Shown: positions 7,270-33,013 of the stretch, piece by piece | How positions within the stretch are numbered: the stretch's first letter is position 1 | How the letters are laid out: the number at the start of each line of letters is the position of its first letter | IMG/VR virus record: IMGVR_UViG_3300029240_000028 | Coordinates: 1-33,248 of that record | Strand: one strand, 5' to 3' | Source of the DNA: a virus | Length of the DNA stretch: 33,248 nucleotides | Translations under genes and position numbers: made by a program | The notes under the pieces: generated by a model | Told to the model about the DNA's origin: nothing | The model's input: only the letters and a program-made list of their open reading frames with translations | Database searches by the model: none

Positions 7270-7492
7270 AAGATACGAATACAACGGAAAGATTTATTGC
7301 GAAGATGATTTATCGGAATCTATAGATAACTATGGCGGTGAATTATATGACTTGTATTGGGAATTATCGCATGACCATCTAGCGTGTGATGTGACTTATT
7401 ATTATGCAACGGATGGAGAAAATGATTATGAAACTGCTGAAGAATTAATAGAATCAGAATTTAGTAATTTAGAGGTAAAAGAAAATGAATGA
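7262..7492 (+). CDS. Hypothetical acidic protein
   Basis: 76-aa ORF whose start overlaps the upstream gene. Confidence 0.6.
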   Translation: MNKRYEYNGKIYCEDDLSESIDNYGGELYDLYWELSHDHLACDVTYYYATDGENDYETAEELIESEFSNLEVKENE

Positions 7493-8383: not shown

Positions 8384-8858
8384 TGTAGCAGTAATAGCAG
8401 GGCACTTAACTAAAGATGTTGAACTATCAAAAACACAAAACGGAAATAGCGTAGCAAAGTTTACGGTAGCAGTAAATGGATACAATGATACTACAGATTT
8501 TATTAATTGTGTAGCATGGAATAAATTGGCAGATATTGTAAATATGTATTGCAAGAAAGGCGATTTAGTTACGGTTGAAGGAAGAATCAGTGTTAGAAAT
8601 TATGAGAATCAACAAGGACAAAGAATTTATATCACTGAAGTGGTGGCTAGTAACGTGCAATTACCGCCTAAAAACGTTTCTAATGGGCAAAATTTCAGTT
8701 CTAATGTAAATGCATATCAATATCCAAACCAAGCAAATAGCAACGCTTACGGCGTTCAAAACACATATACGCAACCTAGCTTAACACAACAAATTGCACA
8801 ACAAGAATATAATGGTGGAAGTGATTTAGAAATTGCTTCAGATGATTTACCATTCTAG
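8376..8858 (+). CDS. ssb: Single-stranded DNA-binding protein
   Basis: OB-fold signature INVAVIAGHLTKDVEL...FINCVAWNKLA...GDLVTVEGRI, a Q/N-rich linker, and the acidic C-terminal tip DDLPF. Confidence 0.95.
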   Translation: MINVAVIAGHLTKDVELSKTQNGNSVAKFTVAVNGYNDTTDFINCVAWNKLADIVNMYCKKGDLVTVEGRISVRNYENQQGQRIYITEVVASNVQLPPKNVSNGQNFSSNVNAYQYPNQANSNAYGVQNTYTQPSLTQQIAQQEYNGGSDLEIASDDLPF

Positions 8859-8870
8859 GAGGTGGCTTTA

Positions 8871-9065
8871 ATAGAAATGAATTATGAAGAAAGGATTAAA
8901 GATTTAATTTCTAAAAACAACAGATTAGGAAGGACGAATATTCAGTTAATTCAAAAGATTAAAGAAAAAGATGAAACAATACACAATCAAACTTTAGAAT
9001 TGAGGCAATTAAGAAATAAAGTTGGTGAATTAGAAGATAGATTGATGAGGATGTATGTATCATGA
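8871..9065 (+). CDS. Small coiled-coil protein (start is ATA 8871 or ATG 8877)
   Basis: GGAGG at 8858-8862. ATA 8871 is 8 nt downstream and ATG 8877 is 14 nt downstream. Confidence 0.55.
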   Translation: MEMNYEERIKDLISKNNRLGRTNIQLIQKIKEKDETIHNQTLELRQLRNKVGELEDRLMRMYVS

Positions 9066-9388
9066 GCACATATGAAGATGTTAAAAGACACTTCTTGTGT
9101 GAATGTAAAAGCTACACTTATTATGAGCAGAGAATAGCAGAGCTACAAAGGGATGAAGCTATTTATCCTTTAAAAGCCGAGCTATTCTTAGCTCATGCAG
9201 ATTATGCAAGAAGAATGAATTATGTAAAAGACAAATTAAGCCAACTTGATGATACAACTCGAACAATGATTGAGTATAGATATATAAAAGGATTCAGTGC
9301 AGAAAAGACATCTAATATTGTAGGTTATGCAAGAGAAGAAATCCCAAGAAAGATAAACAAGAATTTAAAGAAAGTGCTCACAATGTGA
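9062..9388 (+). CDS. ArpU/RinA-like late-gene regulator (sigma-70 region-4-like HTH)
   Basis: C-terminal IEYRYIKGFSAEKTSNIVGYAREEIPRKINKNLKKV resembles sigma region 4. It sits at the early/late boundary. Confidence 0.55.
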   Translation: MSTYEDVKRHFLCECKSYTYYEQRIAELQRDEAIYPLKAELFLAHADYARRMNYVKDKLSQLDDTTRTMIEYRYIKGFSAEKTSNIVGYAREEIPRKINKNLKKVLTM

Positions 9389-9397
9389 GCATTTTTT
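9375..9397 (+). terminator. Intrinsic terminator overlapping the stop codon of the late-regulator gene
   Basis: TGCTCAC aat GTGAGCA forms a perfect 7-bp stem with a 3-nt loop, followed by TTTTTT. Confidence 0.7.
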
Positions 9398-9414
9398 CAT
9401 GTAATAATTGTTTT

Positions 9415-9490
9415 AGCAGGATAGAGCAGTAGTAGCTCACTAGTCTTATTAGCTAGAGGTCGAATGGTGCAAATCCTTCTCCTGCAACCA
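9415..9490 (+). tRNA. tRNA with anticodon UAU (reads AUA), initiator-like acceptor and D stems, encoded CCA
   Basis: Hand-folded cloverleaf. Acceptor AGCAGGA/TCCTGCA with an A1xA72 mismatch. D stem GAGC/GCTC. Anticodon stem CTAGT/GCTAG. Loop CTTATTA, with anticodon TAT at 9447-9449. Variable loop AGGTC. T arm GAA(T)GG-TGCAAAT-CCTTC with one bulge or mismatch. Ends ACCA. Confidence 0.7.
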
Positions 9491-9570
9491 TGATTACAAA
9501 GCCTATCAGTAAGTCCTTCCCAAATTAGATATTAAATACCAACAATGGCATACAATTAGGCTTTTATATT

Positions 9571-9596
9571 ACCGAGCGTTTGTCTCGGTTCTTTTA
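9571..9596 (+). terminator. Intrinsic terminator downstream of the tRNA
   Basis: ACCGAG cgtttgt CTCGGT followed by TCTTTT. Confidence 0.65.
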
Positions 9597-9613
9597 ATAA
9601 TAAGGAGGAGAAT

Positions 9614-9879: not shown

Positions 9880-10462
9880 ATGAACATTGTTGAAAAAAGA
9901 TTAAATGAGCTAAAACCTTATGAGAATAACCCTAGAATCAATGATGGAGCAGTGAAATTTGTTAAAAAATTCTATTGAGGAATTCGGTTTCAAAGTCCCT
10001 ATTGTTATTGATAAAAATGGAGTGATTGTTGCAGGTCATACACGATATAAAGCTAGTCAAGAATTAGGCTTAGAAACTGTTCCTTGCGTGGTTGCAGATG
10101 ATTTAACAGATGAGCAAGTAAAAGCATTTAGAATTGCAGATAATAAAACGGCAGAAAAAGCTTCATGGGATTTAGACGCATTAAAGACAGAAATGGAAGA
10201 GCTAGAAGAAATTGACGGAATCGATATGAGAGATTTTGGATTCGGCGATTTTGAAATTAGTGCACTAACTGAGGATATGGAAGCAGAAGGATACGATAAT
10301 GAGCTTATGGACGCATTTAGCGAACATTCAGAAGAAATGCTAAAAAAACAACGTGTAATCATTACATATGAAACAGAGGAAGAACAACTATTCTTAGAGA
10401 AACTTTTACAGGTAACTGAATTAAAAGTGTGCTACGACATCAAGGAATTAATGCATGAATAA
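9880..10462 (+). pseudogene. ParB-like nuclease-domain gene interrupted by a +1 frameshift in an A6 run (9964-9969)
   Basis: Frame 1 gives MNIVEKRLNELKPYENNPRINDGAVKFVKK and stops at 9976. Frame 2 continues KNSIEEFGFKVPIVIDKNGVIVAGHTRYKAS...AFRIADNK. Removing one A restores a canonical ParB-N domain. Confidence 0.75.
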
Positions 10463-10511: not shown

Positions 10512-11819
10512 GTGAATAAAATTAGTGAGACTTATCAATCACCAAGATGGACAGGAGAAATCGCAGATTGCTCATTACCAGTAACATTTGATACATATTC
10601 CAACTGTTCATTTGGATGTGTTTATTGTTTTAGCCAATATCAAAGAGGCATTGGTGCAAGTAAAGAAGCATATCTTAATAAAGATGTGAAATGTATCAAT
10701 GTTGAGAAGTGTAAAAAGATTTTCAGTGGAGAAGATACAAAATCACAATTCTATAAATACATTAAAGACAGACGTCCTATTCAATATGGTGGATTATCAG
10801 ACCAATTCGACGGATACGAAAAGAAATATGGTAAAACCTATGAAATGCTCAAGTATTTGAAATCTATTAACTATCCTATTTGTTTTAGCACGAAATCGGC
10901 ATGGGTATTTAACGACCCTAAATATCAAGAATTATTCAAAGGTGCAGATAATTGGAATGTTAAGTTTAGTATCATCACACTAGATGAAGAGGACGCAAGA
11001 AAAATTGAAGTAGGTGTACCAAGTCCAAGAAAAAGACTTGAAGCAATGAAAAAATATACTGAATTATCAAAAGGTGGTGCAACTTTAAGGTTACGTCCAT
11101 TTATTGTAGGAGTTTCAGATAAAACCTATCTAGATTTAATTAGAGAAGCCAAAAAGGCAGGAGCAACGGCAGTTACTACGGAGTTCTTTTGCTTAGAAAT
11201 GCGCTCTATTAAACAAGCTAAGGAGCATTATGATGTGATTAGTGAATGTGCAGGATTTGATATTGTAGATTTCTATCGAAAACATTCAAATGGAAGTGGA
11301 TATTTAAGACTTAACAGAAAAGTAAAGGCTAAATACATTCAAAAGATGAAAGAGTTATGTGATGAATTAGGCATGAGATTCTATGTATCAGACGCACACT
11401 TTAAAGAATGCTCGAATAACTGTTGTTGTTGCGCATTAGACAAGAATTGGGATTACTCAAGAGGAAACTTTAGTGGAGCTTTACAAATTGCAAAGAAACA
11501 TGGAAGAGTACATTGGAAAGATATTGAAAAGGATATGTACTTCTTAGACTTTGAACGTAACAAAGCAATTGGCTTTAATACAAATACATCAGAAACTAGA
11601 GCAAAATATGCAGGAATGACAATGAAGGATTATCTGCATTATTTATGGAATTCACCAAAAGCAGGACAATCACCTTACAAGATTTTTGAGAAAGTCTTAA
11701 AGCCTGTAGGATTTGATGAAAATAATGACATCATTTATGAATACGATAATTCAGTAACATTCTTAAAAAGAACAGAGGAGATTACAGAACTTGAAACAGA
11801 AGAAGCAAGACATGTCTAG
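10512..11819 (+). CDS. Radical SAM enzyme (SplB/COG1533-like architecture), function unknown
   Basis: CX3CX2C motif NCSFGCVYCF near the N-terminus. 435 aa. GTG start after GGAGGA. Confidence 0.75.
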   Translation: MNKISETYQSPRWTGEIADCSLPVTFDTYSNCSFGCVYCFSQYQRGIGASKEAYLNKDVKCINVEKCKKIFSGEDTKSQFYKYIKDRRPIQYGGLSDQFDGYEKKYGKTYEMLKYLKSINYPICFSTKSAWVFNDPKYQELFKGADNWNVKFSIITLDEEDARKIEVGVPSPRKRLEAMKKYTELSKGGATLRLRPFIVGVSDKTYLDLIREAKKAGATAVTTEFFCLEMRSIKQAKEHYDVISECAGFDIVDFYRKHSNGSGYLRLNRKVKAKYIQKMKELCDELGMRFYVSDAHFKECSNNCCCCALDKNWDYSRGNFSGALQIAKKHGRVHWKDIEKDMYFLDFERNKAIGFNTNTSETRAKYAGMTMKDYLHYLWNSPKAGQSPYKIFEKVLKPVGFDENNDIIYEYDNSVTFLKRTEEITELETEEARHV

Positions 11820-13641: not shown

Positions 13642-15045
13642 ATAGAAACATCTAACACACGTAATCCGTGGTTTCAGAATTACCTAAACGATAGAGGGTA
13701 TTATGTAGATACAAACGCAATTGAGATTATTGAATTGTGTAATAAGTGGTATACAAATACCGAAACAGAATTTCATACGGCATACACCTTGAACAATGAG
13801 GAATACACGCTAGACAAGACAGATTTTGCAAAGCGTTTATGCGAGGATGATGCAAACCTTATTGAAATCTTGGATATAAACGCAACAGAGGACAGTACAA
13901 CAAATGATATTATTTCAGACATTCTAACAAAGAATAGATTTGATGTAATGTACAGAAAACAAGTTGAGCAAATGTCTGCAAACGGAACAGTAGGTGCTTA
14001 TGTAACGGTATCAAATGCCGAGATTTATGAAGATGGTACATTCAGTGGAGGAGAAATCAGAATCAACTATTGTGATTCAATGAATATCCTTCCATTGACT
14101 GTTATCAATGATGAAATCGTTGAGGTAGCTTTCGTTGGAGTAAATTATGAAAAATTAAAAAAAGTATATGTGATGGTCATGTTCTTAAAAGGGCAAGATG
14201 AAAGATATATTGCAGAAACACATTACTTTAAAGATACAGGCGAAGAAATAAAAGAGCGTGCTCAGATTGTTCAACTAGATGTTGTAAAGCCGTTTGCAAT
14301 TATGAGAAATGCAAAGGTCAATAACTTACAAATGCAAGGGTACGGCTTACCGAAGATTTGGAGCGCAATCGCTCCACTAAAAACAATTGATTTAACAATG
14401 ACAATGTGGAATCGTGATTTGTTGAAATCAGATAAAATCGTTCTTGTGAATGAAGCATTAATGCAGAAAGACGAGAATGGAAAGATTAAGATGAATCCAC
14501 AAATGAAAAAGATATTTGTTCAGTTAGGTAGAGATAAGCTTCCGGAAGAAAAAGCTTTATGGCAAGAATATAATCCAACAGTAAGAACGGCAGAAGTTGT
14601 TCAATCACTAGAAACTGCGTTAAGTATCTTATCTATGATGTTTGGATTTGGTACAAAGAAATATACGTTTGAAAGTGGAAGAATCGTAACGGCTACAGAA
14701 TATATCGGTGAGAATCAAGACGCAATGAAGGAAGTTAACTCACAACGTAAAGAATCTACTGCATATATTCAAGATATCATTCAAGCAATAGCGTACTTCT
14801 ATGAATTGACACAAGGCAGAAAGCTTAATATCAATTCATTAGACATTGCTATTGATTATGATGATACATACATTGAAGATAAACAAAGCACTGCACAAGC
14901 GTTAAGGAATGACGCATTAACATTTGATATTCCAAGATTGAAGATTATGTATTTTATGAAGCAATACGGCTTTACTGAAGAAGAAGCAACGGAGTTATTA
15001 AATGAAGAAATTCAAGATGATGGAGAGGAGGATGAAGAAGAATAG
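13642..15045 (+). CDS. Portal protein (SPP1 Gp6-like), proposed ATA start
   Basis: The frame opens at 13639, right after the TerL stop. ATA 13642 lies 6 nt after GGAGG (13631-13635). The N-terminus NPWFQNYLNDRGYYVDTNAIEIIELCNKWY is portal-like, and the first canonical start is TTG 13735. Confidence 0.9.
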   Translation: METSNTRNPWFQNYLNDRGYYVDTNAIEIIELCNKWYTNTETEFHTAYTLNNEEYTLDKTDFAKRLCEDDANLIEILDINATEDSTTNDIISDILTKNRFDVMYRKQVEQMSANGTVGAYVTVSNAEIYEDGTFSGGEIRINYCDSMNILPLTVINDEIVEVAFVGVNYEKLKKVYVMVMFLKGQDERYIAETHYFKDTGEEIKERAQIVQLDVVKPFAIMRNAKVNNLQMQGYGLPKIWSAIAPLKTIDLTMTMWNRDLLKSDKIVLVNEALMQKDENGKIKMNPQMKKIFVQLGRDKLPEEKALWQEYNPTVRTAEVVQSLETALSILSMMFGFGTKKYTFESGRIVTATEYIGENQDAMKEVNSQRKESTAYIQDIIQAIAYFYELTQGRKLNINSLDIAIDYDDTYIEDKQSTAQALRNDALTFDIPRLKIMYFMKQYGFTEEEATELLNEEIQDDGEEDEEE

Positions 15046-15851
15046 CAACTACATATTTTCCATTCGTCTCAAGAAATGGCGATAGATTAGTACTATATGA
15101 CGCTTTCAGAAGATTATTCTCAAGCTACTTTACGAATGGCGTATTCGTTGATGATTCTAGTTCGGACCATTTAAGAGTTGAGAAAGCTCAAGGCTTAACA
15201 TTAACAGTTAAAGCAGGACGAGCAAATATTAATGGAGCGTTCTATTGGCAGAAAGATGACGAAACCATCACACTAGAAAAGAATAACGCAACTAAAAGTT
15301 ACAATATCATTCTTAGATTGAATGATAATGACGCATACAGAAATATCACATTGATTGCTAGTGATATCAATGATGGAATCACAAGAAGTGATTCTATTTA
15401 TGATTTAGTGTTAGCTACAGTTACGGTTACAGGCAATGCAAGTGAAGTAAAAGGTTCAGATATTACAGATACAAGACTAGATTCTACACGTTGTGGAGCA
15501 GTTACAAGCGCAATTAAAAGCGTACAATCGTTGGATTTGTTCACTCAAGTTACTGAGCTATTCAAAGAAATTAAGGCTCAGAATGAATCTGAAATGAACG
15601 CAAATAGAACGGAATTTAATGATTGGTTTGAAACTGTAAAAGATACGTTAGACGCAAATACGGCAGGAAAACTATCTAACAGAATTTCAAACATTGAAAA
15701 GATGATTATGGAGAATCACTTTACTACGATTCTATTAACCGAAGATGGAACGTTAGTAGATGAGAATGGGCATGAGATTCTAGCGGATTGGGCGTATGAA
15801 GTTGATGACGGTGAAGTAGGCAAAGATTGGTCTTACAAGGTGAAATCATGA
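15042..15851 (+). CDS. Tail-fibre-like structural protein, proposed ATA start
   Basis: ATA GCA at 15042 overlaps the portal stop as ATAG, with GAGGAGG 10 nt upstream. About 92 codons (ATTYFPFVSRNGDR...) precede the first canonical start, TTG 15318. Confidence 0.8.
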   Translation: MATTYFPFVSRNGDRLVLYDAFRRLFSSYFTNGVFVDDSSSDHLRVEKAQGLTLTVKAGRANINGAFYWQKDDETITLEKNNATKSYNIILRLNDNDAYRNITLIASDINDGITRSDSIYDLVLATVTVTGNASEVKGSDITDTRLDSTRCGAVTSAIKSVQSLDLFTQVTELFKEIKAQNESEMNANRTEFNDWFETVKDTLDANTAGKLSNRISNIEKMIMENHFTTILLTEDGTLVDENGHEILADWAYEVDDGEVGKDWSYKVKS

Positions 15852-16484: not shown

Positions 16485-17093
16485 ATAGCTATTGAATATT
16501 TAGATAAGAGTGGATTGACGCTCTTAATCAGTAAAATTAAATCGGCGTTAGGTGGGAAAGTTGATGTTGAAATTGGTAAAGGCTTATCAACAAATGACTA
16601 CACAAGCGCAGAAAAACAAAAGTTAAGTGGTATCGCAAATGGTGCTCAAGTGAACGTGATTGAGTCGGTAAAGGTAAATGGTACGAAGTTAACGCCAAGC
16701 TCAAAAGCCGTAGATGTTACAGTACCGACAAAGACATCGCAATTAACGAATGACAGTGGATATCAGTCGGCAACGAGCGTTGAGTCAATTATCACGGCTA
16801 AAGGGTATCAAACGCAATCACAAGTACAATCGTTGATTAATTCGGCAGTAGGTAATATTACATCAATTAGATATGAAAAGGTAACAAGCTTACCTGCTAC
16901 AGGTTCAAATGGTGTTATTTATTTGGTTGCACATTCACATGGAACGCAAGATATTTATGATGAATATATTTGGTTATCAGAAACTAAAACATTTGAAAAG
17001 ATTGGTAATACAGACATTGATTTATCGGCATATGTTAAGAAATCAGAATTAACGGCGATTACAACAAACGATTTAAACACAATGTGGGGTTAG
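16485..17093 (+). CDS. Tail-fibre protein, proposed ATA start
   Basis: ATA GCT at 16485 lies 7 nt after GGAGG (16473-16477). The N-terminus AIEYLDKSGLTLLISKIK and the motif GKGLSTNDYTSAEKQKLSGI are fibre motifs. The first canonical start is TTG 16515. Confidence 0.8.
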   Translation: MAIEYLDKSGLTLLISKIKSALGGKVDVEIGKGLSTNDYTSAEKQKLSGIANGAQVNVIESVKVNGTKLTPSSKAVDVTVPTKTSQLTNDSGYQSATSVESIITAKGYQTQSQVQSLINSAVGNITSIRYEKVTSLPATGSNGVIYLVAHSHGTQDIYDEYIWLSETKTFEKIGNTDIDLSAYVKKSELTAITTNDLNTMWG

Positions 17094-20668: not shown

Positions 20669-21538
20669 ATACCAAATGAAATTGCGTTAGCTAAAACGTA
20701 TGTCTCAAATTTGGATGAGGTATATAAGTTAGCATCAGTAACAGGTGATTTAAATGCAGACGCTACAATGGTAAGAGCAGGAGCGAACGCAAAAGAAATC
20801 ATCTATCCACAAATTTCTGTTAAAGGTTTAGGAAACTATGATAGAAATAGTGGTTATACATCTAACTCAGTGAAATTAGAATGGAAAACTGCAACATTTG
20901 ACTACGATAGAGGAACTAAAATCTCAGTTGATACACAAGACAATGCAGAATCAATGAATATTGCGTTCGGTAGAGCAGGAGCGGAATTAATGCGTACAAA
21001 GGTTGCACCGGAAGCAGACGCTTACACATTCGCTAAGATTGCAGGCACAACAGGAATCACAAAAGTTTCAGAAGATTATGCAAGTGCAGAAGAGTTCTTG
21101 AGTGCATTATTAAAAGCAGTTACTAAAATGGATGAGGATGAAGTGCCAAGTGAACAACGTATCTTGTATTCTACTCCTACATTATTGAATAGCGTTAAAG
21201 CTTTAGATACTTACAAATCACGTGAAGCTTTACAAGGATTCGCAAAGGTAGTTCCTGTACCTGCTAGTCGTTTCTATACAAAGATTAAATTGTTGAGTGG
21301 AGCAGATACAGAAGAAGAAGGTGGATATACTAAAGCAGAGGATGGACACGTTATCAACTTCTTGATTGTTCATAAACCTTCTGTTATGAAATGGGATAAA
21401 CACATTGTTTCAAATGTAATTCCTGCAAGCAATAACATTGAATCAGATTCAGATGTATTGAAATATCGTAAGTATGGAATCGTTGATGTATACGCAAATA
21501 AGGTAGCAGGTATTTACTTATCTGCTAGTGCGAAGTAA
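20669..21538 (+). CDS. Major capsid protein, proposed ATA start
   Basis: The frame opens at 20666. ATA 20669 lies 9 nt after GGAGG (20655-20659). The N-terminus PNEIALAKTYVSNLDEVYKLAS.T and the later GLGNYDRNSGY ... FDYDRG motifs are typical. The first canonical start is TTG 20711, which has no SD. Confidence 0.85.
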   Translation: MPNEIALAKTYVSNLDEVYKLASVTGDLNADATMVRAGANAKEIIYPQISVKGLGNYDRNSGYTSNSVKLEWKTATFDYDRGTKISVDTQDNAESMNIAFGRAGAELMRTKVAPEADAYTFAKIAGTTGITKVSEDYASAEEFLSALLKAVTKMDEDEVPSEQRILYSTPTLLNSVKALDTYKSREALQGFAKVVPVPASRFYTKIKLLSGADTEEEGGYTKAEDGHVINFLIVHKPSVMKWDKHIVSNVIPASNNIESDSDVLKYRKYGIVDVYANKVAGIYLSASAK

Positions 21539-22007: not shown

Positions 22008-22423
22008 CAGGATTCTTTGAGGATTCAATTACACTTGTAAATCACTACTATGATACATTGACGAGAGAAGATAGGTTTCAAGCTTCTATCCTTGATAAAT
22101 GTATGTGGAGACAATCTACTGTTAGAACTGCAAACGGTAATATTCTGAGCATAGCCACATCCACAAATATTACCATTCTATATCGTGAGGGATATGTTGA
22201 ACCTTACGAATATGCAAAGCTTTCAAATGATGAGAAACAAAAGCACTTCACATTAAATACAGATAAAACAGATTTCGTATTCTTTGGAGAAGTCGAAGAA
22301 GATTTATCTAACATCAAGGCAATCAATGAAGCTAAAAAGAAATACAAATGGACAACGATTCAAAGCGTAACAGATTGTACGAATGTCGATATGTTGAAGC
22401 ATTGGGAGGTTGTCGGTCAATAG
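22004..22423 (+). CDS. Minor capsid / head-tail joining protein (Minor_capsid_1-like)
   Basis: ATG 22004 overlaps the upstream stop. Call based on position and size. Confidence 0.6.
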   Translation: MTGFFEDSITLVNHYYDTLTREDRFQASILDKCMWRQSTVRTANGNILSIATSTNITILYREGYVEPYEYAKLSNDEKQKHFTLNTDKTDFVFFGEVEEDLSNIKAINEAKKKYKWTTIQSVTDCTNVDMLKHWEVVGQ

Positions 22424-22782
22424 GAATTAAAGTCAAACTTGATGTTGAATCAATTCCCCAAATTAAGCAATCAAGAGGACTAGAAGAACGTGGACGAGTT
22501 CAACAAATGATTGATTCTGAAGTCATTAGGCTTATGTCCCCTTATACGCCTAGAGACACAGGAGCATTAATTAACTCGGCTACAAGATTAACTCAAATCG
22601 GTAGTGGATTAGTAAAGCAAGGTGGGCCAAGTGCTCCATATGCTAGACGGTGGTATTACAACAAAGAGAATGCTCATTTCGTAGGAGGTAAAACAGACCA
22701 TTGGTTTAAAAAAGCTATGCGAAATGGTGGGACAGAAACAATCTTAAAGAAAGCGCAACAAATGATAGGAGACGGAGAATGA
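22420..22782 (+). CDS. HK97 gp10-like / Minor_capsid_2-like connector protein, proposed ATA start
   Basis: ATA 22420 overlaps the upstream stop as ATAG and lies 10 nt after GGGAGG (22404-22409). GIKVKLDVESIPQIKQ... and MSPYTPRDTGALINS ... APYARRWYY motifs. Track ORF begins at ATG 22348, deep inside the upstream gene, no SD seen. Confidence 0.75.
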   Translation: MGIKVKLDVESIPQIKQSRGLEERGRVQQMIDSEVIRLMSPYTPRDTGALINSATRLTQIGSGLVKQGGPSAPYARRWYYNKENAHFVGGKTDHWFKKAMRNGGTETILKKAQQMIGDGE

Positions 22783-23198
22783 CAGTATCAAAAGCATTGA
22801 TTCAATGGCTATACGGCTACGGAAATATACAGATAGATGAACGTATTGAAACGGATGTTTTAGCGCAACAAGCTATCTCTTATGCATTGTATAAAGAACC
22901 TAATGCAATTGTAGATACATACATTGACGGTTCTCAAATGCGTACAGAATACTATACATTTCTAGCACGTAGGAATACACAAATCGAAGCCGAAAGGCAA
23001 GACAACAATTCCTTTTTAGAAGAATTGGAAGAATGGATTGACGAAAAGAATTTAAATGGAGAATTACCACAACTAGACGGAAACAGACATTGTGATGATG
23101 TTTCCGTTTCAAGTGGTTTATATCTATACACAAATGAGGATAGTCAAGCAGTATATGCGTTAACTATTCAAATCAAATACAGAAAGGAGCTTAATTAA
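22779..23198 (+). CDS. Minor_capsid_3-like / tail completion protein
   Basis: ATGA overlap with the upstream gene. 139 aa. Position before the major tail gene. Confidence 0.6.
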   Translation: MTVSKALIQWLYGYGNIQIDERIETDVLAQQAISYALYKEPNAIVDTYIDGSQMRTEYYTFLARRNTQIEAERQDNNSFLEELEEWIDEKNLNGELPQLDGNRHCDDVSVSSGLYLYTNEDSQAVYALTIQIKYRKELN

Positions 23199-23704
23199 TA
23201 GCAACTCAAGGAACTGAAGTAACTACAGGACAGACAGTCAAGAAGTATATGATTGGATTGTTCTTACAAATGGGAGAAGGTTACAAGCGAATTAAAAAGT
23301 CTACAACTTTAGATATTTCATTCAATAGTGAAACTGAAACGTATGACTTTATCGCAGATAAGAACCCAACAGAATCATTAAAGAGTTATTCACCTCAGAT
23401 TTCGCAAGATTTAACAATGATTAAAGGCGAAGATGACTTTGAATACATTTACGAACAAATGATGAAATCCGTACCAAACAACGAAGAAGTAAATACAAAA
23501 GCTTTACTTGTATTCATGTTTGACGGAGACAAAACAAAAGGCTATAAAGCGTGGGAAGTTGACGCTAAATTGATTTTCGACACATTGAGTGGCGTCGATT
23601 CAAAAATCAACTTCAACATTAACTTTGCAAGTGATATTCGTGTCGGTACTGCAAAGGTAGCAGATGGAACAGTAACATTTACAGAAGGTACATCAGAAGT
23701 ATAA
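23198..23704 (+). CDS. Major tail protein, proposed ATA start
   Basis: ATA GCA at 23198 overlaps the upstream stop as TAATA and lies 8 nt after AAAGGAG (23183-23189). The track start ATG 23249 has no SD. Confidence 0.75.
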   Translation: MATQGTEVTTGQTVKKYMIGLFLQMGEGYKRIKKSTTLDISFNSETETYDFIADKNPTESLKSYSPQISQDLTMIKGEDDFEYIYEQMMKSVPNNEEVNTKALLVFMFDGDKTKGYKAWEVDAKLIFDTLSGVDSKINFNINFASDIRVGTAKVADGTVTFTEGTSEV

Positions 23705-23722: not shown

Positions 23723-24085
23723 ATGAATAGAATCACGTATGAAGGGAAGCAGTATGAAATCCCACCTAAAACAATTGAAGTTTTAAAAGCAGAGGACGCT
23801 TGTAACGCATTTCACGCAACGCATGAAGAAGCATATCGAGCTAAATTCGACTATCTGAAAACAGTATTAACAGATGAACAAATTGAAAGCATGTTAGGCA
23901 GTACAGACTTTGAACAGGTTGATTTGATGGAAGTATTGTATATTGTCAATTTGATTGATGATGAATATTCAAAGAAAACGTATGAACAGTTAGAAAAGAA
24001 ATTAAAAACAACATTCGGAACAAATGGAATGAAGCAATTTCTTGACGCAAGCAAAACTGTTTCTAGCATTTCGGCGAAGAAATGA
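23723..24085 (+). CDS. Tail assembly chaperone candidate
   Basis: 120 aa, acidic, located between the major tail and tape measure genes. Confidence 0.6.
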   Translation: MNRITYEGKQYEIPPKTIEVLKAEDACNAFHATHEEAYRAKFDYLKTVLTDEQIESMLGSTDFEQVDLMEVLYIVNLIDDEYSKKTYEQLEKKLKTTFGTNGMKQFLDASKTVSSISAKK

Positions 24086-24645
24086 TTGATTTACGCATAA
24101 AAGGCTTGCCAAATAGCATTCAGTCGCTAGATGGCGAGCCTATTTTATTAAATACAGATTTTCGCTTGTGGATAAGATTCTATGAAGAATTAGAACGATT
24201 CAACAATCATGTTATTGATAAAGTAGATTGTTCTTATTTATTCGTAAATGAACCACCCATCATAGATAAGCATATATTAAAAGAGTTAGAACGATTCCTA
24301 TATAACCCTTCTAGTACGCCTAGAAGTGATTCTACAGGCGTTAAGACATTAGACTATGTACAAGATGGTGAATATATTTATTCGGCTTTTATGCAACTTT
24401 ACGGCATTGATTTAACGGAATGTGATATGCATTGGCACAAGTTCTTAGCACTAGCCAATAATATAGTTGGTGATTCAACTTTATGGGGATATGCAAAGAG
24501 CGTTAGAGGATATGAAAAACCTTCAAAAAATGATACACAAGATAAAGCATATCAAAGAGCAAAAGAAGCGTGGTCTTTCCCAATCGAGTTAACAATAGAG
24601 GAACAAGAAATGAAAGATGAATTTGATTCATATTTTGATGTTTAG
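24082..24645 (+). CDS. Phage Gp15-family protein (second chaperone-position gene)
   Basis: ILLNTDFRLWIRFYE... resembles the Gp15 family, recalled from memory. ATGA overlap with the upstream gene. Confidence 0.6.
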   Translation: MIDLRIKGLPNSIQSLDGEPILLNTDFRLWIRFYEELERFNNHVIDKVDCSYLFVNEPPIIDKHILKELERFLYNPSSTPRSDSTGVKTLDYVQDGEYIYSAFMQLYGIDLTECDMHWHKFLALANNIVGDSTLWGYAKSVRGYEKPSKNDTQDKAYQRAKEAWSFPIELTIEEQEMKDEFDSYFDV

Positions 24646-24665
24646 AAAAGGAGGTGGCAAATTGA

Positions 24666-27245
24666 ATATCAGACGGAACATTAAAGTTTGATACAAAGAT
24701 AGACACAAGTGGTCTAGAGAATGGTATTAAATCTGTAAAGGTTGTATCAAGTGAAGCCACAAATGCTATCAAAGATACTTCAAAAGCGATTGATAAGCTA
24801 GGTTCTGATGGTTCAAAAGCACCGCCAAAAATTAAAGATAAACTTAAAGATTTAAATGATGAGCAAAAGAATACACAAACAGAAACGCAAGAAACAGGTT
24901 CAAAGTTTGATGTATTTAAACAAGTAGGAAGCAGTGCCTTAGAGTCAATTCAAGGTGGATTTGACGGACTATTAGGAAAGATTCAGAATATTAGTCCGGA
25001 AGCTACTGCAATCACTGAAACTTTAACAGGTTTAGGCGTTGGAGGTGTCGTTGGTGTCACTGCCGTAGCAGGAGCTATCGGTGGTATGGCACTAGCTATT
25101 AAAACAGGTGTTAATCAAGCTATGGAACTAGATGACGCTATGGCTAAATTCCAAGCTCAAACAGGTGCTTCAAGCAATGAAATGAATAAATTTAAAAACA
25201 TTGCTCGTGATGTTTGGTCAAACAATTTCGGCGAAAATGTTTCAGACGTAGCCGATATGATGGCACGTGTCAAACAACAAATGCAAGGTATAAGTGATGT
25301 CGATTTAAAGAATGTAACTGAGGATTTATTGACATTAAGAGACACATTCGGAATGGACGAGAACGAAACATTAAGAGGTGCTCAACAATTAATGAAGCAG
25401 TTCGGAATTACTTCTCAAGAAGCTTTTGACCTTATGGCTACAGGTGCTCAGAATGGTTTGAATAAGTCGGATGAATTAGGCGATAACATTTCGGAATACT
25501 CCGGTAAATTTGCTCAAGCAGGATATTCGGCAAAAGAATATTTCCAATTAATGCAAAATGGTTTAGATGGTGGAGCTTATAACCTTGATAAAGTTAACGA
25601 CGCAATCAATGAAGTTACCACAAGGTTAGTTGATGGAACTATCGAAGGAGCTTTAGATAGTTTTGATATCAAGACGCAAGATGTATTTAAGGCTTGGCAA
25701 GAAGGAAGAGCAACTCAGAAAGATGTTGTAAATGCGATTGTAGAAGATATTTCAAAGACTACAAATGAGCAAGAAAAGTTGAATAAATCGGCAACGGCTT
25801 TCGGTACAATGGGAGAAGATTTCAACGCCGGATTTATTGAATCCTTAACTACGGTAGGAAATAAATATAAAGATGTAGAAGGAGCAATGGATAAAGTCAA
25901 AGATATTGCAAATGGTGGCTTAAAGAACGCTTTAAGTGGCTTAGGACGTACATTTCTTGATTCATTTACTCCAATAGGCGAACTTATTACCCCTATTCTT
26001 GCAGGTATCATCGGATTAATTACAGTAGCTATACAAGGTATTCAACAAGGATTTGCTAAAGTTGGTGAAGTTATTTCAAGTGTATTAAGTAAGATTGATA
26101 CAAGTGGAATTACAGAATTAACAAGTCAAGTTTCCGAAGTGTTAGCTCCTGCGTTTGATGAGGTAAAAAAAGCGATTGACGAAATGAAAGTTGCACTTGA
26201 GCCTATTGCAAAAGAAATTTTAGGTAAAATTGGTAACGCAATTCAAAATGTTGTTAACCAAGCTCAAAAGATTCTTAGCGTTGTAGGACCACCGATTCTA
26301 GCAATTATTAAGAAGATTATTCAAACAGTTATCGGCATGATTCCTGTAATAACATCTATCCTTCAAATTGTGGGAAGTGTGGTAAGTGGAATCATTTCAT
26401 TTATAACTATGGTTGTGACGTATGTAGGAACTGCGATTGCAACTATACTTGGATTTATCATGCCTATTGTTCAAATCGTAGCTACAATTGTAGCGAATAT
26501 TTGGTCTGTAATATTAACGGTTGCTCAGAATATTTGGAGTAAGGTTAGTGAAATAGTTACTGCAATTATTGGATTCGTAAGCAATTTGTTTAAAACAGTT
26601 TCGGACATCATAAACAATATTTGGAGCAAGATTCAAGATACAATGAACAGAGTAGGAGATAAAGTTAAAGGCGTTATTGATAATATCAATAAATATTTCA
26701 ATAATGTTAAGAGTACTGTTTCTGATGTATTTAATGGCATTTGGTCTAAAGTTCAAGATGTCATGGACAATGTAGGAAATAAAATTTCAAATGTTCTACA
26801 AGGAATACAGAATGCATGGAGCGGTTTAAAAGGGTTTGTAGGTGGTGTATTCAGTGGAATTGAAGGAGCAGTTAGTTCATTAGTTGGAAGTGTAAAAGGA
26901 ATGGTAAATGGAGTTATCGGTGGCATTAACGGCGCAATCGGTATCATCAATAAGATTCCCGGAGTTCACATTGGAAAGATTCCAAGACTAGAGCGTGGTG
27001 GTGTATTGAAGCGTGGTCAGATTGGTTTGTTGGAAGGTAACGGAGCAGAAGCAGTCGTACCATTAGAAAAAAATAAAGCGTGGATTCGTGCCGTTGCTAA
27101 AGATATGGCTCAAATCATGCCTAGCGTAACAACAAATAACAATGGACAGACTATCAACTTCTACAATAAAGTTCAAAGTCCGGATGAAATCGCTAGAATG
27201 TTACGTATGCAAGCAAGATATGGATATGGAGGTGTAGTTCAATAG
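24666..27245 (+). CDS. Tape measure protein, proposed ATA start (859 aa)
   Basis: An in-frame TGA at 24663 is immediately followed by ATA 24666, 8-11 nt after AAAGGAGGTGG. SDGTLKFDTKIDTSGLENG is a typical tape-measure N-terminus. There are 140 open codons with no ATG/GTG/TTG before the track start at 25086. Confidence 0.9.
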   Translation: MSDGTLKFDTKIDTSGLENGIKSVKVVSSEATNAIKDTSKAIDKLGSDGSKAPPKIKDKLKDLNDEQKNTQTETQETGSKFDVFKQVGSSALESIQGGFDGLLGKIQNISPEATAITETLTGLGVGGVVGVTAVAGAIGGMALAIKTGVNQAMELDDAMAKFQAQTGASSNEMNKFKNIARDVWSNNFGENVSDVADMMARVKQQMQGISDVDLKNVTEDLLTLRDTFGMDENETLRGAQQLMKQFGITSQEAFDLMATGAQNGLNKSDELGDNISEYSGKFAQAGYSAKEYFQLMQNGLDGGAYNLDKVNDAINEVTTRLVDGTIEGALDSFDIKTQDVFKAWQEGRATQKDVVNAIVEDISKTTNEQEKLNKSATAFGTMGEDFNAGFIESLTTVGNKYKDVEGAMDKVKDIANGGLKNALSGLGRTFLDSFTPIGELITPILAGIIGLITVAIQGIQQGFAKVGEVISSVLSKIDTSGITELTSQVSEVLAPAFDEVKKAIDEMKVALEPIAKEILGKIGNAIQNVVNQAQKILSVVGPPILAIIKKIIQTVIGMIPVITSILQIVGSVVSGIISFITMVVTYVGTAIATILGFIMPIVQIVATIVANIWSVILTVAQNIWSKVSEIVTAIIGFVSNLFKTVSDIINNIWSKIQDTMNRVGDKVKGVIDNINKYFNNVKSTVSDVFNGIWSKVQDVMDNVGNKISNVLQGIQNAWSGLKGFVGGVFSGIEGAVSSLVGSVKGMVNGVIGGINGAIGIINKIPGVHIGKIPRLERGGVLKRGQIGLLEGNGAEAVVPLEKNKAWIRAVAKDMAQIMPSVTTNNNGQTINFYNKVQSPDEIARMLRMQARYGYGGVVQ

Positions 27246-28111
27246 ATATCAATAAGGTAAGAGTTATCGTCCGTAGGGATGATGGCAAAGAATTTGAAAT
27301 CGACAACAAAAGATGGAGAATACCATCTAGTGATGGTTTAGATGGATTTGATTATGTAGCACCTTCATATACAACACAAGACAATGCATTCGGAAACGGT
27401 GCTAGATTAATCGGTTCACGTATTCCAACAAAAGAAAGAAGTGTGAAAGCTACCTTTAAAGGCTCGCTAGAAGAAAAAAGAGAAGAAAGGGAGAAGCTAC
27501 GGCGCTTCTTCCAATATTCTCATGTATTTGATGTGATAGTTGAGTATATGGGAGAAAAGAAATATTGCAGAGGAAGACTATATGCGTATAGCTTGCCTAC
27601 CGTTAATATCTACAAAGATTTAGAGCTTAACTTTACGATTCTATGCACGCAACCTTTATTGCTTTCATTTGATGATTTCGCAAGGAATATCGCAGAAATT
27701 GGTGAAGGTTTAGCGTTCAATTTTGAAATACCGGAAACAGGCGTAAACTTTGGAACGTTTACATTCGCTAGAGAAATCTATATTGATAATCAAGGCGATA
27801 CAGAAACATACTGTAGAGCCGTTATTGAAGCGTTTGGAGAGGTTACAAATCCGAAACTATTCAACAAAGATAAATATATTCGTGTATTAGATACGCTACA
27901 CAATGGTGATGTGTTAGAAATTGATTTAGTTTCTGAGCCTATTTCGATTAAAAAAAATGGTGTGAATTGTATAGGCAAAGTAGACAGAACCTCATCATTC
28001 AATGATATGACGATTCAGTTAGGCGAGAATATCATAGGATACACGGCAGACAATGGAGATACGAACCTAGCTTGTACGGTTTATTACAATGAAAGGTATT
28101 TAGGTTTATAG
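27242..28111 (+). CDS. Distal tail protein (Dit), proposed ATA start
   Basis: ATA 27242 overlaps the tape-measure stop as ATAG and lies 9 nt after GGAGG (27228-27232). There are 67 open codons without a canonical start before GTG 27443. Confidence 0.8.
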   Translation: MDINKVRVIVRRDDGKEFEIDNKRWRIPSSDGLDGFDYVAPSYTTQDNAFGNGARLIGSRIPTKERSVKATFKGSLEEKREEREKLRRFFQYSHVFDVIVEYMGEKKYCRGRLYAYSLPTVNIYKDLELNFTILCTQPLLLSFDDFARNIAEIGEGLAFNFEIPETGVNFGTFTFAREIYIDNQGDTETYCRAVIEAFGEVTNPKLFNKDKYIRVLDTLHNGDVLEIDLVSEPISIKKNGVNCIGKVDRTSSFNDMTIQLGENIIGYTADNGDTNLACTVYYNERYLGL

Positions 28112-29138: not shown

Positions 29139-29639
29139 ATAGAAAAGAAAAATGGAGGATTTAAACAAATAACAAGAAGTATGTATTTTCTAGACAAGAT
29201 GAATGCAATTGGTGGTGTAGCCGTTGCCGTATTAACATACGTATTAGGTGAGCATTGGTATTTATTTGCGTTCTTCTTATTTATGAACGTCGTGGATTAT
29301 ATTACAGGGTGCATGAAGTCGGCGATTAATCACAAAATCAATAGCAATAAAGGATGGATTGGAGTCCTTAAAAAGCTAGGCTATTGGATTATGATTGTAG
29401 TTGCGTTCACGTTCAGTGCATTCTTGGTAGAGATTGGAAAAATGCTAGGAATTGATTTCCATGTAACTACATTATTAGGTTGGTTTGTATTGGCTTCTTT
29501 ATGTATTAATGAAGTGCGTAGCATTATTGAGAACCTTGTACAATGTGGATATAGTGTGCCTAGTGTATTAACTAAAGGTTTGGAAGTAGCGGATAAAATC
29601 GTTAACGAAGACAATGACGAATCAAGTACCTTGGAATAA
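29139..29639 (+). CDS. Holin (toxin-secretion/phage-lysis holin family), probable ATA start
   Basis: Multi-TM protein with NVVDYITG and LCINEVRSIIEN motifs. ATA 29139 lies 8 nt after AAGGAG. The track start GTG 29130 lies inside that SD, and the internal ATG has no good SD. Confidence 0.75.
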   Translation: MEKKNGGFKQITRSMYFLDKMNAIGGVAVAVLTYVLGEHWYLFAFFLFMNVVDYITGCMKSAINHKINSNKGWIGVLKKLGYWIMIVVAFTFSAFLVEIGKMLGIDFHVTTLLGWFVLASLCINEVRSIIENLVQCGYSVPSVLTKGLEVADKIVNEDNDESSTLE

Positions 29640-31334: not shown

Positions 31335-31754
31335 ATGATTAATAGTATAGCAACGGCAATTCAGACAGTAGCAAATGGACAAAATGTATTATTTCCAACA
31401 GATAGAGTAAGAACGAAATCTTGCCAATGTGCTTGTAAAGGTTGGCTTGCTCATGATGTAGGAAGTGGATTATTTACGTTAACAAAACAAGGAATCTATG
31501 AGGTAGAATATACGGCAGATATTACAAGCGCAACAGTAGGAGTAGCTTCTTTAGAATTAGAACAGAATGGAGAAGCAGTAGGAGGAACAGAATCTTTATA
31601 TAATGTAGCTACTGCAAGTGCATACGGAAATGTAAGTGGAGCAACATTGATTCAAGTACCTTGTGGAGCTTCTTATACAATCACGCTAGGAAACAACAGT
31701 GGCTTAGATTTATCTGTTCAGAATGCAAATATCATCATTAAGAAATTAGCGTAG
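31335..31754 (+). CDS. BclA-C-terminal-domain-like (TNF/C1q-type jelly roll) protein without collagen repeats
   Basis: NVLFPTD...GLFTLTKQGIYEVEYTADI...LELEQNGEAVGGT...ASYTITLGNNSG...NANIIIKKL resembles BclA C-terminal domains, recalled from memory. Confidence 0.55.
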   Translation: MINSIATAIQTVANGQNVLFPTDRVRTKSCQCACKGWLAHDVGSGLFTLTKQGIYEVEYTADITSATVGVASLELEQNGEAVGGTESLYNVATASAYGNVSGATLIQVPCGASYTITLGNNSGLDLSVQNANIIIKKLA

Positions 31755-32251: not shown

Positions 32252-33013
32252 ATAAATTATCAAAATTTCAAAAAAGCCGTATTAGGCAAAGCTTTCGACA
32301 TTGACGGATACTATGGTGCTCAATGTTGGGACGGATTCGCAAAGTACATGATTGATTTAGGATATAAGGCTATCCATTGTACAACGAGCAAATTTGTGAA
32401 AGACATTTGGAACAATCGAAAAACAAATGGTATCTTGAACTATTGTAATGAGGTCTCAATTATGCAACCTGGAGACATTGCGGTATTTAAAGAAGTAGCA
32501 GGATGGACTCCATATTCACATATCGCAATCTTTGATTCTGATATTGACGGAAAGCAAGGATGGTTCTTAGGACAGAATCAAGGTGGAAAGAATGGAGCAT
32601 TTACCTTATGTAAATTGCCTTATTATGCTACATTCGATACTGCGTTTAGACCTAAATGTTTCGCAAATAGTGGAGCTACAAGTCCAAGCATTCCACAACC
32701 TGTAGAAGCAATTGACCAAATTTTGCACGCAGGTTCTTACGTTACATCCGTACAAATGAAGATTGGAAATCAAGGCTTGAAACAAATCAATGGCGATTTA
32801 TGCGCATACCTTGCACCATTGGGTGGTTGGTTTCCGATTCGCTTAGTTGATAAGGTACGTAATTCCGATGGATATAATGACAATGTATTGCATACCACAA
32901 ATGCCGTTGTCTATGTAACTAGAATTCGTGTTGATGAAGTCAATGTACAAAAGAATCTTGCGAAAATCGGTGGAATTTGGGTAAATTGTGGACCTTTAAT
33001 TGAAGTTGCATAA
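32252..33013 (+). CDS. Endolysin: N-terminal CHAP domain plus C-terminal SH3b-like wall-binding domain, proposed ATA start
   Basis: The catalytic-Cys motif DGYYGAQCWDGF lies upstream of the track start at 32348. The frame opens at 32237 with no canonical start. ATA 32252 lies 9 nt after GGAGG (32238-32242). The catalytic-His motif is YSHIAIF. Confidence 0.85.
   Translation: MNYQNFKKAVLGKAFDIDGYYGAQCWDGFAKYMIDLGYKAIHCTTSKFVKDIWNNRKTNGILNYCNEVSIMQPGDIAVFKEVAGWTPYSHIAIFDSDIDGKQGWFLGQNQGGKNGAFTLCKLPYYATFDTAFRPKCFANSGATSPSIPQPVEAIDQILHAGSYVTSVQMKIGNQGLKQINGDLCAYLAPLGGWFPIRLVDKVRNSDGYNDNVLHTTNAVVYVTRIRVDEVNVQKNLAKIGGIWVNCGPLIEVA

Follow-up and report, generated by a model that had tools for sequence, protein, structure and literature searches.

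ATA start codons and an initiator-type tRNA with a UAU anticodon in a human-gut siphophage clade

The IMG/VR virus contig IMGVR_UViG_3300029240_000028, analysed here over its whole length of 33,248 nt (the window), derives from a temperate human-gut siphophage whose tape-measure gene lacks ATG, GTG and TTG in its first 140 codons. Comparison with related contigs identifies ATA as the predicted initiation codon of this gene (at 24666) and of about 11 others. It also identifies, in the same genome, a conserved transfer RNA (tRNA; 9415–9490, plus strand) that, judged from its sequence, has an initiator-type body and a UAU anticodon, cognate to AUA. The UAU tRNA and the predicted ATA starts occur together in two lineages. 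We think it probable that the ATA starts are read mainly by this phage-encoded, AUA-reading initiator tRNA and not through mispairing of the host formylmethionine initiator (fMet-tRNA). We lean slightly towards a fuller picture, in which the lineage would have made an A-AUA start codon of its own, used by about a fifth of its genes, recognised through four base pairs and probably giving (formyl-)isoleucine starts.

The tape-measure gene and the other ATA starts

At the tape-measure site the sequence runs TAG (24643–24645), AAAAGGAGGTGGCAAAT, TGA, ATA and then TCA GAC GGA, with the following features.

24647–24657, plus strand: Shine–Dalgarno (SD) sequence of the tape-measure gene, AAAGGAGGTGG, read directly; core invariant in 29 relatives
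24663–24665, plus strand: in-frame TGA that shuts the frame directly upstream of ATA; conserved in 29/29 relatives
24666–24668, plus strand: ATA, predicted start codon of the tape-measure gene; the –1 base is A
24666–25085, plus strand: 140 N-terminal codons without ATG, GTG or TTG; variable sites by codon position 30/17/92
24666–27245, plus strand: tape-measure protein gene, 859 codons and TAG (27243–27245); matches phrog_58 and ∼30 other tape-measure PHROGs

The SD core GGAGGTG ends 9 nt before ATA 24666, its duplex with the anti-SD is among the strongest within the window, and translation from the ATA reads I-SDGTLKFDTKIDTSGLENGIKSV. A sequence-only reading of the window had pointed to this SD, to the TGA directly before the ATA and to a frame free of stops and of ATG, GTG and TTG from 24666 to 25086. 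All of this is borne out, the open reading frame (ORF) list and an independent stop-to-stop scan both placing the first canonical start of the frame at ATG 25086, codon 141. That reading had also called the site the cleanest single case, which still holds, with the gene now one of 12 SD-preceded ATA starts in the window. In random sequence of the same composition, 140 stop-free codons have a probability of ∼4.5e-6; the probability of 140 codons without ATG, GTG or TTG is ∼0.002 at the in-gene frequency of these codons. The lack of ATG, GTG and TTG is not a selected trait in itself, since eight relatives do carry a canonical start codon at codon 21.

Clade relatives were taken as 30 loci from at least five metagenomes, found by scanning IMG/VR with the tape-measure protein; theirs is 81–96% identical to that of the window over residues 1–859. 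The pattern ...ATTGA-ATA-(T/G)C... is kept in 29/29 related contigs spanning the site, which come from five or more metagenome assemblies, and the 859-codon frame is open in 27/27 full-length copies, the window included. Across these 27 copies, variable sites fall 30/17/92 over the three codon positions in codons 1–140 and 234/139/529 in the remainder of the gene, and codons 1–140 hold 63 purely synonymous columns and 40 with amino-acid changes. Tape-measure PHROG profiles align from residue 7 to residue 846 (phrog_58, E = 1e-71), and several others begin between residues 17 and 36. This constraint, the profiles and the invariant TGA-ATA and SD support the earlier claim that the 140 N-terminal codons are accessible only from the ATA, and on these comparative grounds we take ATA 24666 to be the start of the gene.

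The gene itself is an ordinary tape-measure gene, by family homology, by tblastn matches to annotated tape-measure genes and by its place between the tail chaperone genes, with a Gp15-like chaperone next upstream, and the gene for the distal tail protein (Dit), next downstream. The two upstream genes (23723–24085 and 24082–24645) are joined by an ATGA overlap, the second being the Gp15-like one (PF06854). A search with residues 1–170 against 5.8 billion proteins recovered only five proteins, of 95–214 aa, and no distant N-terminal homologues.

A start at ATG 25086, the one that gene callers predict, would give a 719-aa protein, and the 420 nt upstream would be either untranslated or a decayed remnant. 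This ATG is the first canonical start, with AGGAG 11 nt upstream, and tblastn matches to annotated phage tape-measure genes begin at about residue 144–160; in Bacillus phage BMBtp16 and similar homologues, however, the conserved core is likewise found ∼280 residues from the N-terminus. M141 falls at the end of a hydrophobic segment, and with such a start a strong SD would stand orphaned ahead of a 440-nt gap. Above all, codons 1–140 form a stretch unlikely to be open by chance, are open in every full-length copy, vary by codon position as the rest of the gene does and are matched by profiles from residue 7. With such constraint and such profile matches, initiation at ATG 25086 is not tenable, and we assign it almost no probability.

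Initiation at TTG 24662–24664, between the SD and the ATA, would require a +1 frameshift or a 1-nt indel in the assembly. The TTG is conserved and well placed, 5 nt past the SD, and the arrangement recurs, as [T/G]TGA-ATA, at three ATA starts of L224, a contig of the second lineage described below, and at one of L258. Its frame, however, is not that of the tape-measure gene and ends at the TGA after 9 codons, and it shows no slippery or hungry-codon signal. An assembly or sequencing error at TGA-ATA was considered and ruled out, since TTGAATA is identical in 29 contigs from at least five assemblies, including those of JGI and ENA. No ATG, GTG or TTG lies within a few nt upstream of 10 of the 11 other ATA starts (the one at 15042 has an out-of-frame ATG 10 nt upstream), so a TTG with a frameshift cannot explain the pattern. 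Only the tape-measure site has an out-of-frame TTG nearby, and the genes of the window contain no in-frame stops; we consider this explanation exceedingly improbable.

The [T/G]TGA-ATA motif itself, seen at 24662–24691 of the window, at 3013, 4798 and 7979 of L224 (reverse-complement coordinates) and at 5827 of L258, consists of a canonical start one frame off that overlaps an in-frame TGA directly before the ATA. Its recurrence may reflect chance, a frame-clearing stop or a competing mini-ORF.

Over a gene list of ∼54 genes, start codons divide into 34 ATG, 12 ATA, 4 TTG and 4 GTG; an SD was one of the criteria for calling ATA starts, at an SD-to-ATA distance of 5–10 nt. Besides the tape-measure gene, the ATA-started genes are the following.

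5242–5619, plus strand: RusA-like resolvase, SD and ATA; first canonical start 28 codons downstream; phrog_1682 from residue 2
8871–9065, plus strand: small gene, SD and ATA, a weaker case with ATG 2 codons later; same site in L206
13642–15045, plus strand: portal, SD and ATA; first canonical start TTG 13735, 31 codons downstream; phrog_533; ATA in 5/5 relatives
15042–15851, plus strand: head protein, ATA overlapping the upstream TAG (ATAG); 92 codons without canonical start; residues 3–224 align to phrog_1220 positions 8–248; ATA in 22/22 relatives
16485–17093, plus strand: structural gene, SD and ATA; phrog_24103 aligns 4–200 to 4–195/197; at exactly this codon, relatives have ATA (10) or ATG (5)
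20669–21538, plus strand: major capsid protein, SD and ATA; the ATA aligns with the Met1 ATG of relatives; ATA in 28/28 clade members
22420–22782, plus strand: head–tail gene, ATA overlapping the upstream TAG; phrog_556
23198–23704, plus strand: putative major tail gene, ATA overlapping the upstream TAA; phrog_3099; relatives have ATA (26) or ATG (1)
27242–28111, plus strand: Dit, ATA overlapping the TAG of the tape-measure gene; phrog_33; first canonical start GTG 27443, 67 codons past the ATA; ATA in 27/27 relatives
29139–29639, plus strand: holin, SD and ATA; PF05105; relatives have ATA (22) or ATG (3)
32252–33013, plus strand: CHAP endolysin, SD and ATA; endolysin PHROGs from residue 2; first canonical start ATG 32348, 32 codons past the ATA; ATA in 19/19 relatives

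For the head–tail gene, ATA 22420 is the probable start, the alternative ATG 22348 having no SD. Family profiles begin at residues 2–4 in the ATA-started head, capsid, endolysin, RusA and 16485 proteins. Two GTG starts in the ORF list, at 8862 (GGAGGTGG) and 29130 (AAGGAGTGA), fall within SD motifs and are artefacts of a first-start rule; in both cases the SD-spaced codon is ATA. In public gene calls on this contig, the portal has 418 or 436 aa and the head protein 177 aa, 31–49 and 92 residues too few, respectively. Gene callers limited to ATG, GTG and TTG truncate or miss such genes, and the tape-measure protein would lose 140 residues.

The capsid shows most directly what the ATA replaces. 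Its N-terminus, IPNEIALAKTYVSNLDEVYK, aligns residue for residue with that of Eggerthella phage PMBT5, MANSITKFKAYTSMLDEVYK, with ATA opposite ATG, and the same ATA corresponds to the Met1 ATG in MT835795 and in every IMG/VR relative of 50–67% identity that matches from query residue 1. At three start sites ATA and ATG alternate among relatives, and ATT or ATC never occurs there; internal ATA columns of the tape-measure gene exchange instead with ATT (31), ATC (19) and GTA (16), and with ATG only twice. From this internal exchange pattern and the start polymorphism, ATA would be read as Ile inside genes and as a start codon at these sites. An automated SD-plus-ATA signal was present in 139/522 ORFs of the 30 clade loci compared to 29/1277 in 50 distant capsid relatives, the latter at the level of control codons. 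The ATA-start trait is thus specific to the clade.

The systematic pattern also prompted a different kind of explanation, namely a variant code (ATA as Met, or TGA as sense), A-to-I editing of AUA to AUI, or a modified G sequenced as A. The window encodes a radical-SAM protein (10512–11819), and neither this nor the pattern lends such explanations direct support. Internal ATA exchanges with ATT, ATC and GTN and not with ATG, and TGA, TAG and TAA all end genes, ATGA overlaps included, so that the candidate code change (TGA as sense, ATA as Met) was rejected. The ATA contexts share only the A at –1 and have no TACG-type TadA motif, and ATG starts in similar contexts stay ATG. Family matches of the radical-SAM protein are to PA0069/Rv2578c and 'mobile pair B', none of them reaching its curated cut-off. 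We presume the PA0069/Rv2578c families to be related to spore-photoproduct lyase (SplB), which would point to a DNA-related role, and these family matches give no link to translation, so the protein was also dropped as a candidate translation modifier. Taken together, a variant code, editing or a modified base is very improbable.

An initiator-type tRNA with a UAU anticodon

The proposed AUA-reading initiator tRNA occupies a 225-nt gap between two genes and is flanked as follows.

9375–9397, plus strand: terminator-like hairpin TGCTCACAATGTGAGCA followed by T6, at the end of the upstream gene; the scan gave the minus strand, and it reads as a plus-strand terminator too
9400–9408, plus strand: extended –10-like element TGTAATAAT (TGCGATAAT in some relatives), 6 nt upstream of tRNA position 1
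9415–9490, plus strand: tRNA gene with encoded CCA and anticodon UAU; Rfam RF00005, 48.8 bits (match 9415–9487)
9571–9597, plus strand: terminator-like hairpin and T-run downstream of the tRNA, from a terminator scan

The RNA reads AGCAGGA UA GAGC AGUAGUA GCUC A CUAGU CUUAUUA GCUAG AGGUC GAAuGG UGCAAAU CCUUC UCCUGCA A CCA, and its minimum-free-energy fold is the cloverleaf; ARAGORN found no tRNA in the window and missed 9415–9490. The TGnnATAAT element upstream is conserved in relatives and is a possible promoter of the tRNA's own, and a consensus promoter scan at the tRNA returned nothing, with no –35 box.

Like the bacterial initiator (E. coli metZ/W/V), the phage tRNA has no Watson–Crick pair at 1:72 (A1×A72 in the window and in all clade variants), has G2:C71, C3:G70, A73 and an encoded CCA, and carries the A11:U24 D stem (GAGC/GCUC, as in metZ; metU, ileX and ileV have GCUC/GAGC) and the AGGUC variable loop of metZ. 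Among E. coli tRNAs, metZ also scores best against it in global alignment (21, compared to 7 for metU, 8 for ileX and 9 for ileV); blastn against E. coli genomes gave no match, since no 11-mer is shared. It differs from the bacterial initiator in being phage-encoded, in having UAU in every copy instead of CAU, U37 in the anticodon loop (CUUAUUA) and one or two of the three anticodon-stem G:C pairs, in A1×A72 instead of C1×A72 (which the L224 lineage has), and in its bulged T stem, G55 and A18.

The anticodon, the exact complement of AUA, is what it shares with elongator tRNA-Ile(UAU). Such elongators, as in phage T4 and Mycoplasma mobile, have a paired 1:72, pyrimidine11:purine24 and A37 (t6A). 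All three features are present in E. coli ileV and ileX, whereas the phage tRNA lacks each of them: it has the 1×72 mismatch, A11:U24 and, in the window clade, L206 and L224, U37 in place of a purine.

Blastn against 50,697 phage records gave 16 matches, and all the annotated ones are tRNA-Met(CAU). The closest sequences in phage collections are initiator-type tRNA-Met genes with the 1×72 mismatch and the same D stem. That of Campylobacter phage F336 shares A1×A72 and both unusual loops (AGUAGUA in the D arm, UGCAAAU in the T arm) and has three G:C pairs, and that of Mycobacterium phage Phabba has A1×C72 and the same CUAG anticodon stem. A further one lies in L128, a capsid relative (5257–5333, ∼670 nt upstream of the major capsid gene; G1×A72, A11:U24, three G:C pairs). 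These three differ from the tRNA of the window in keeping CAU and A37, and in L128, the sole such phage checked, the capsid gene starts with ATG. The L128 tRNA shows that this phage family includes members with an initiator tRNA of their own. It is plausible that the L128 type represents the ancestral state and a C34-to-U change the origin of the UAU form; compared to phage tRNA-Met genes, the anticodon loop goes from CUCAUAA to CUUAUUA (C34 to U, A37 to U).

Searching for the exact 17-nt anticodon arm finds it in 28 clade contigs, and a broader pattern adds others with variant arms; for variants in IMG/VR and metagenomes, the degenerate pattern was the initiator D stem, then YUUAU, then AGGUC. 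Every checked clade contig of at least 30 kb has the tRNA except 3300029219_000010 (43 kb), in which only 27255–39433 is covered. The anticodon stem of the window (variant A, CUAGU/GCUAG) differs from variant B (UCGGU/GCCGA) by three compensatory double changes, and variant B nearly equals the E. coli fMet stem (UCGGG/CCCGA). In variant C, 31:39 is restored to C:G, and the type found in L206 and L216 has a canonical T arm and is called tRNA-Ile(tat) by ARAGORN. The 1×72 mismatch, A11:U24 and the formylation determinants are kept across variants only 74% identical.

A family alignment of 12 UAU variants and three CAU initiators gave a cloverleaf with 94.9% of cells paired and changes on both sides in 16/21 pairs, and 0/500 shuffles did as well. 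In it, 2:71 is G:C in 14/15 members, 3:70 is C:G in 15/15, and 1:72 is unpaired in 15/15 rows of a set chosen to include mismatch types.

The second lineage is represented by L224 (10.3 kb), with L208 carrying the same tRNA; its large terminase subunit (TerL), portal and capsid are 73%, 62% and 54% identical to those of the window. The tRNA lies directly upstream of the small terminase subunit gene (TerS) and has UAU, C1×A72, U37, G29:C41 and G30:C40. L224 has at least six SD-preceded ATA starts, including those of TerS (IAKGKYKEWIEKDNLL...), portal and capsid, and the capsid (IANSIALSKNYVDLLDEVYK) has its ATA at the Met1 position of the family. A family covariance model run over 50 ATG-using relatives (±6 kb around the capsid gene in each) found no UAU tRNA.

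UAU tRNAs with an initiator-type D stem and A37 also occur in L198, L205/L264, L220/L268, L228, L239, L253 and L246 (GC 34–68%); their 1×72 mismatch is C×A, C×U or A×A, they often have two or three G:C anticodon-stem pairs, and ARAGORN labels those of L220, L239, L253 and L264 tRNA-Ile(tat). ATA matches in L220 have no SD and are probably noise. L263 (ERZ779669 NODE-22, 95.8 kb; regions around 6778–7758 and 9388–9543) encodes an initiator-type UAU tRNA with C1×A72 and three G:C pairs, adjoined by a second tRNA whose anticodon ARAGORN gives as four bases (tgaa). The contig apparently lacks SDs and has many in-frame TAGs inside genes. It does not count as a third lineage: where an ORF seemed to have no start codon, the cause is an in-frame TAG in a TAG-recoded phage and not an ATA start.

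How the ATA starts may be read

Under the reading we favour, an extended –10 promoter of its own would drive transcription of the tRNA, which would be aminoacylated, with Ile the likeliest amino acid given its UAU anticodon (by the isoleucyl- rather than the methionyl-tRNA synthetase), formylated, its acceptor-stem determinants being present, and kept off EF-Tu by the 1×72 mismatch. It would then be set on SD-positioned AUA codons, with UAU pairing perfectly with AUA in the ribosomal P site and U37 adding a fourth base pair, to the A found before each ATA start. IF3, which checks codon–anticodon complementarity and not AUG as such, would let UAU:AUA pass. The phage would thereby control a second start codon, used by structural and lysis genes whose translation would depend on its tRNA, and the ATA-started proteins may begin with (formyl-)Ile rather than Met. 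Much of this extends known tRNAfMet biology, worked out in the RajBhandary, Schulman, Blanquet and Varshney laboratories: a 1×72 mismatch, combined with G2:C71 and C3:G70, allows the tRNA to be formylated and keeps EF-Tu from binding it, and the unpaired 1:72 serves both as a formylation determinant and as an anti-determinant towards EF-Tu and peptidyl-tRNA hydrolase. Initiator tRNAs engineered to carry another anticodon do initiate at the non-AUG codon that matches it (PMC11744186).

The sequence context of the starts bears on the proposed fourth pair. The –1 base is A at 12/12 ATA starts compared to 20/34 ATG starts (Fisher p = 0.009), and at 6/6 ATA starts of L224. This A is complementary to U37 of the phage tRNA, so the A37-to-U37 change covaries with the context of the new start codon. 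Position 37 of E. coli tRNAfMet has been found, at scale and with an A37U variant included, to pair with the –1 base of the mRNA (PMC10018350).

The main rival is that host fMet-tRNA(CAU) reads the ATA starts by a third-position mismatch, the phage tRNA(UAU) being only an elongator or irrelevant. Such near-cognate reading could operate here and may contribute, and we judge it unlikely as the full explanation. Several ATA starts overlap an upstream stop (ATAG or TAATA), as expected of translational coupling, and standard tools call this type of tRNA tRNA-Ile(tat). Host reading would, however, hold twelve genes, the major capsid gene included, to a fraction of AUG efficiency, and AUA start efficiency in E. 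coli is 0.1–1% of AUG (PMC11744186). The third base of the start ATA stays A at 8/11 sites (∼20–29 relatives), whereas ∼66% of tape-measure third positions vary. The tRNA keeps features hostile to elongation, namely the 1×72 mismatch as EF-Tu anti-determinant, A11:U24 and the formylation determinants. The AT-rich contig L197 (GC 29%), in turn, has a UAU tRNA with a paired U1:A72 and A37 and no ATA starts seen; its presumed TerL, portal and capsid genes, assigned by ORF size and order, start with ATG.

Several observations weigh against a dedicated phage initiator. AUA starts of S. aureus (infC, ccpN and citZ) reach 10–30% of AUG when the SD is extended (PMC13009471). The ATA genes of the window have stronger SD/anti-SD duplexes than its ATG genes (medians –12.6 and –10.1 kcal/mol, p = 0.0008), a comparison that is partly circular because the SD helped to define the ATA starts. 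The window also holds 129 internal ATA codons, which would give an elongator work to do. The tRNA keeps one of the three initiator G:C anticodon-stem pairs (A29:U41, G30:C40 and U31·G39), with two kept in variant B and L224 (G29:C41 and G30:C40); natural initiators with fewer than three such pairs exist. With its U37, bulged T stem and G55, and with no call by ARAGORN, the tRNA may be decaying or non-standard, and its conservation argues against decay. The excess of ATA starts among late genes is not significant (2/20 vs 10/34, p = 0.17), and the two ATA-using lineages are related, so that they are not strong phylogenetic replication. Finally, initiator-type UAU tRNAs occur in L198, L205, L220 and L263 with no ATA starts seen in the few kb available, such contigs ranging in GC from 27 to 68%; over these stretches at least, this type of tRNA is not always accompanied by ATA starts.

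Among known systems, the attenuated genes infC and S. aureus ccpN, citZ and cvfC1 share with the present case an AUA start, a strong extended SD and a low-GC Gram-positive setting, and differ in being a few regulatory genes kept at 10–30% output by host fMet-tRNA (PMC13009471). Here, ATA starts 12/54 genes, including those for capsid, portal, major tail and tape measure, and the cognate tRNA is encoded alongside them. Conceptually, phage stop-codon recoding would be the closest natural system and an engineered orthogonal initiator tRNA the closest artificial one. Stop-codon recoding with phage suppressor tRNAs, reportedly described in crAss-like and Lak phages by Borges and colleagues and by Peters and colleagues in 2022, is similar in that a viral tRNA changes the reading of one codon class, mainly in late genes, and in that gene callers mis-annotate the result. 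It acts on termination codons in elongation, whereas the proposed tRNA would act on an initiation codon in the P site. Streptomyces bldA, a tRNA-Leu(UUA) that gates developmental genes, offers a further parallel in that a gene set waits for one dedicated tRNA, gating being only a hypothesis here; unlike the proposed tRNA, bldA acts in elongation, on a rare sense codon. Engineered initiators such as the amber tRNA(CUA) and tRNA(AAC) likewise combine an initiator body with a changed anticodon and a matching non-AUG codon; they are laboratory constructs, whereas the phage case would be natural and conserved, with matching starts in the same genome. Such anticodon mutants often start with a residue other than Met (PMC11744186; 10.1101/2021.05.25.445580).

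Our literature search found no natural initiator tRNA with a non-CAU anticodon and no phage with systematic ATA starts. To our knowledge, every natural initiator tRNA described so far has CAU, and non-AUG starts are explained by mispairing of that tRNA. If the mechanism holds, which we judge somewhat more likely than not, we would regard the system as categorically new; if it fails, the system would be an unusual variant of non-canonical initiation, and even with the tRNA as an elongator only, 20% ATA starts on the most abundant proteins would be unusual in that sense. A working mechanism would be a new way of varying the genetic code, at the start signal and parallel to stop-codon recoding in phages, a natural orthogonal initiation system like those synthetic biologists build by hand, and a case for quadruplet pairing between tRNA position 37 and the mRNA –1 base.

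As to biological role, we can speculate that the tRNA gates the translation of virion and lysis genes, holin and endolysin both starting with ATA, or that the phage gains independence from the host initiator pool. If so, a phage-controlled tRNA could provide a mechanism that gates lysis and structural genes and times or insulates late expression, or could free the phage from the host initiator tRNA pool or from defences targeting that pool. The initiator-type UAU tRNAs in many other metagenomic contigs suggest that the principle may be wider, and tools label such a tRNA as an ordinary tRNA-Ile or miss it.

The phage, its host and neighbouring genes

The window is a contig of a JGI human-faecal co-assembly (3300045988, Ga0495776_144877), and its 445-aa terminase large subunit occurs as an identical sequence on 13 contigs, one ENA assembly among these. 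Megablast of the tape-measure region against phage records gave no match, and a host search with the tape-measure protein against GTDB genomes found nothing. The best host-side matches to the integrase of clade relatives are Erysipelotrichales prophage integrases, at only 38–40% identity, and no ATA starts were seen at these loci (GC 39–43%). Host flanks and an att-site tRNA were looked for, and neither was found. At best, the host can be placed among low-GC gut Bacillota.

The tyrosine integrase lies between the lysis module and the repressor region in relatives (L051 10875–13000, L047 10867–13800, and L057–L081) and is absent from the window contig. Many contigs stop ∼30 nt short of the integrase gene, on its upstream side, pointing to a break in the assembly at the attachment site, and in some the lysis genes are joined to the integrase, as in a circular or attP form. 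L047 has an extra insertion at the integrase region. In its early region (8585–8650, minus strand), L047 also carries a match to the Rfam Hammerhead ribozyme type II (39.4 bits, gathering score 37), which is absent from the window at the gathering threshold.

Just upstream of the terminase genes, a ParB_N-domain protein (9959–10462) is followed by the 435-aa radical-SAM protein (10512–11819); the ParB protein aligns only from profile position ∼33, and its N-terminus or start may be mis-set. Neither protein showed a connection with the ATA starts. The lysis module is mosaic within the clade: the endolysin of the window is a 253-aa CHAP protein, whereas that of L051 (13000–14496) has 498 aa and Pfam detects only GH25 in it (residues 275–443). 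The 139-aa product of 31335–31754, between the tail and lysis genes, contains a BclA C-terminal domain (PF18573), whose TNF-like fold is known from the Bacillus exosporium.

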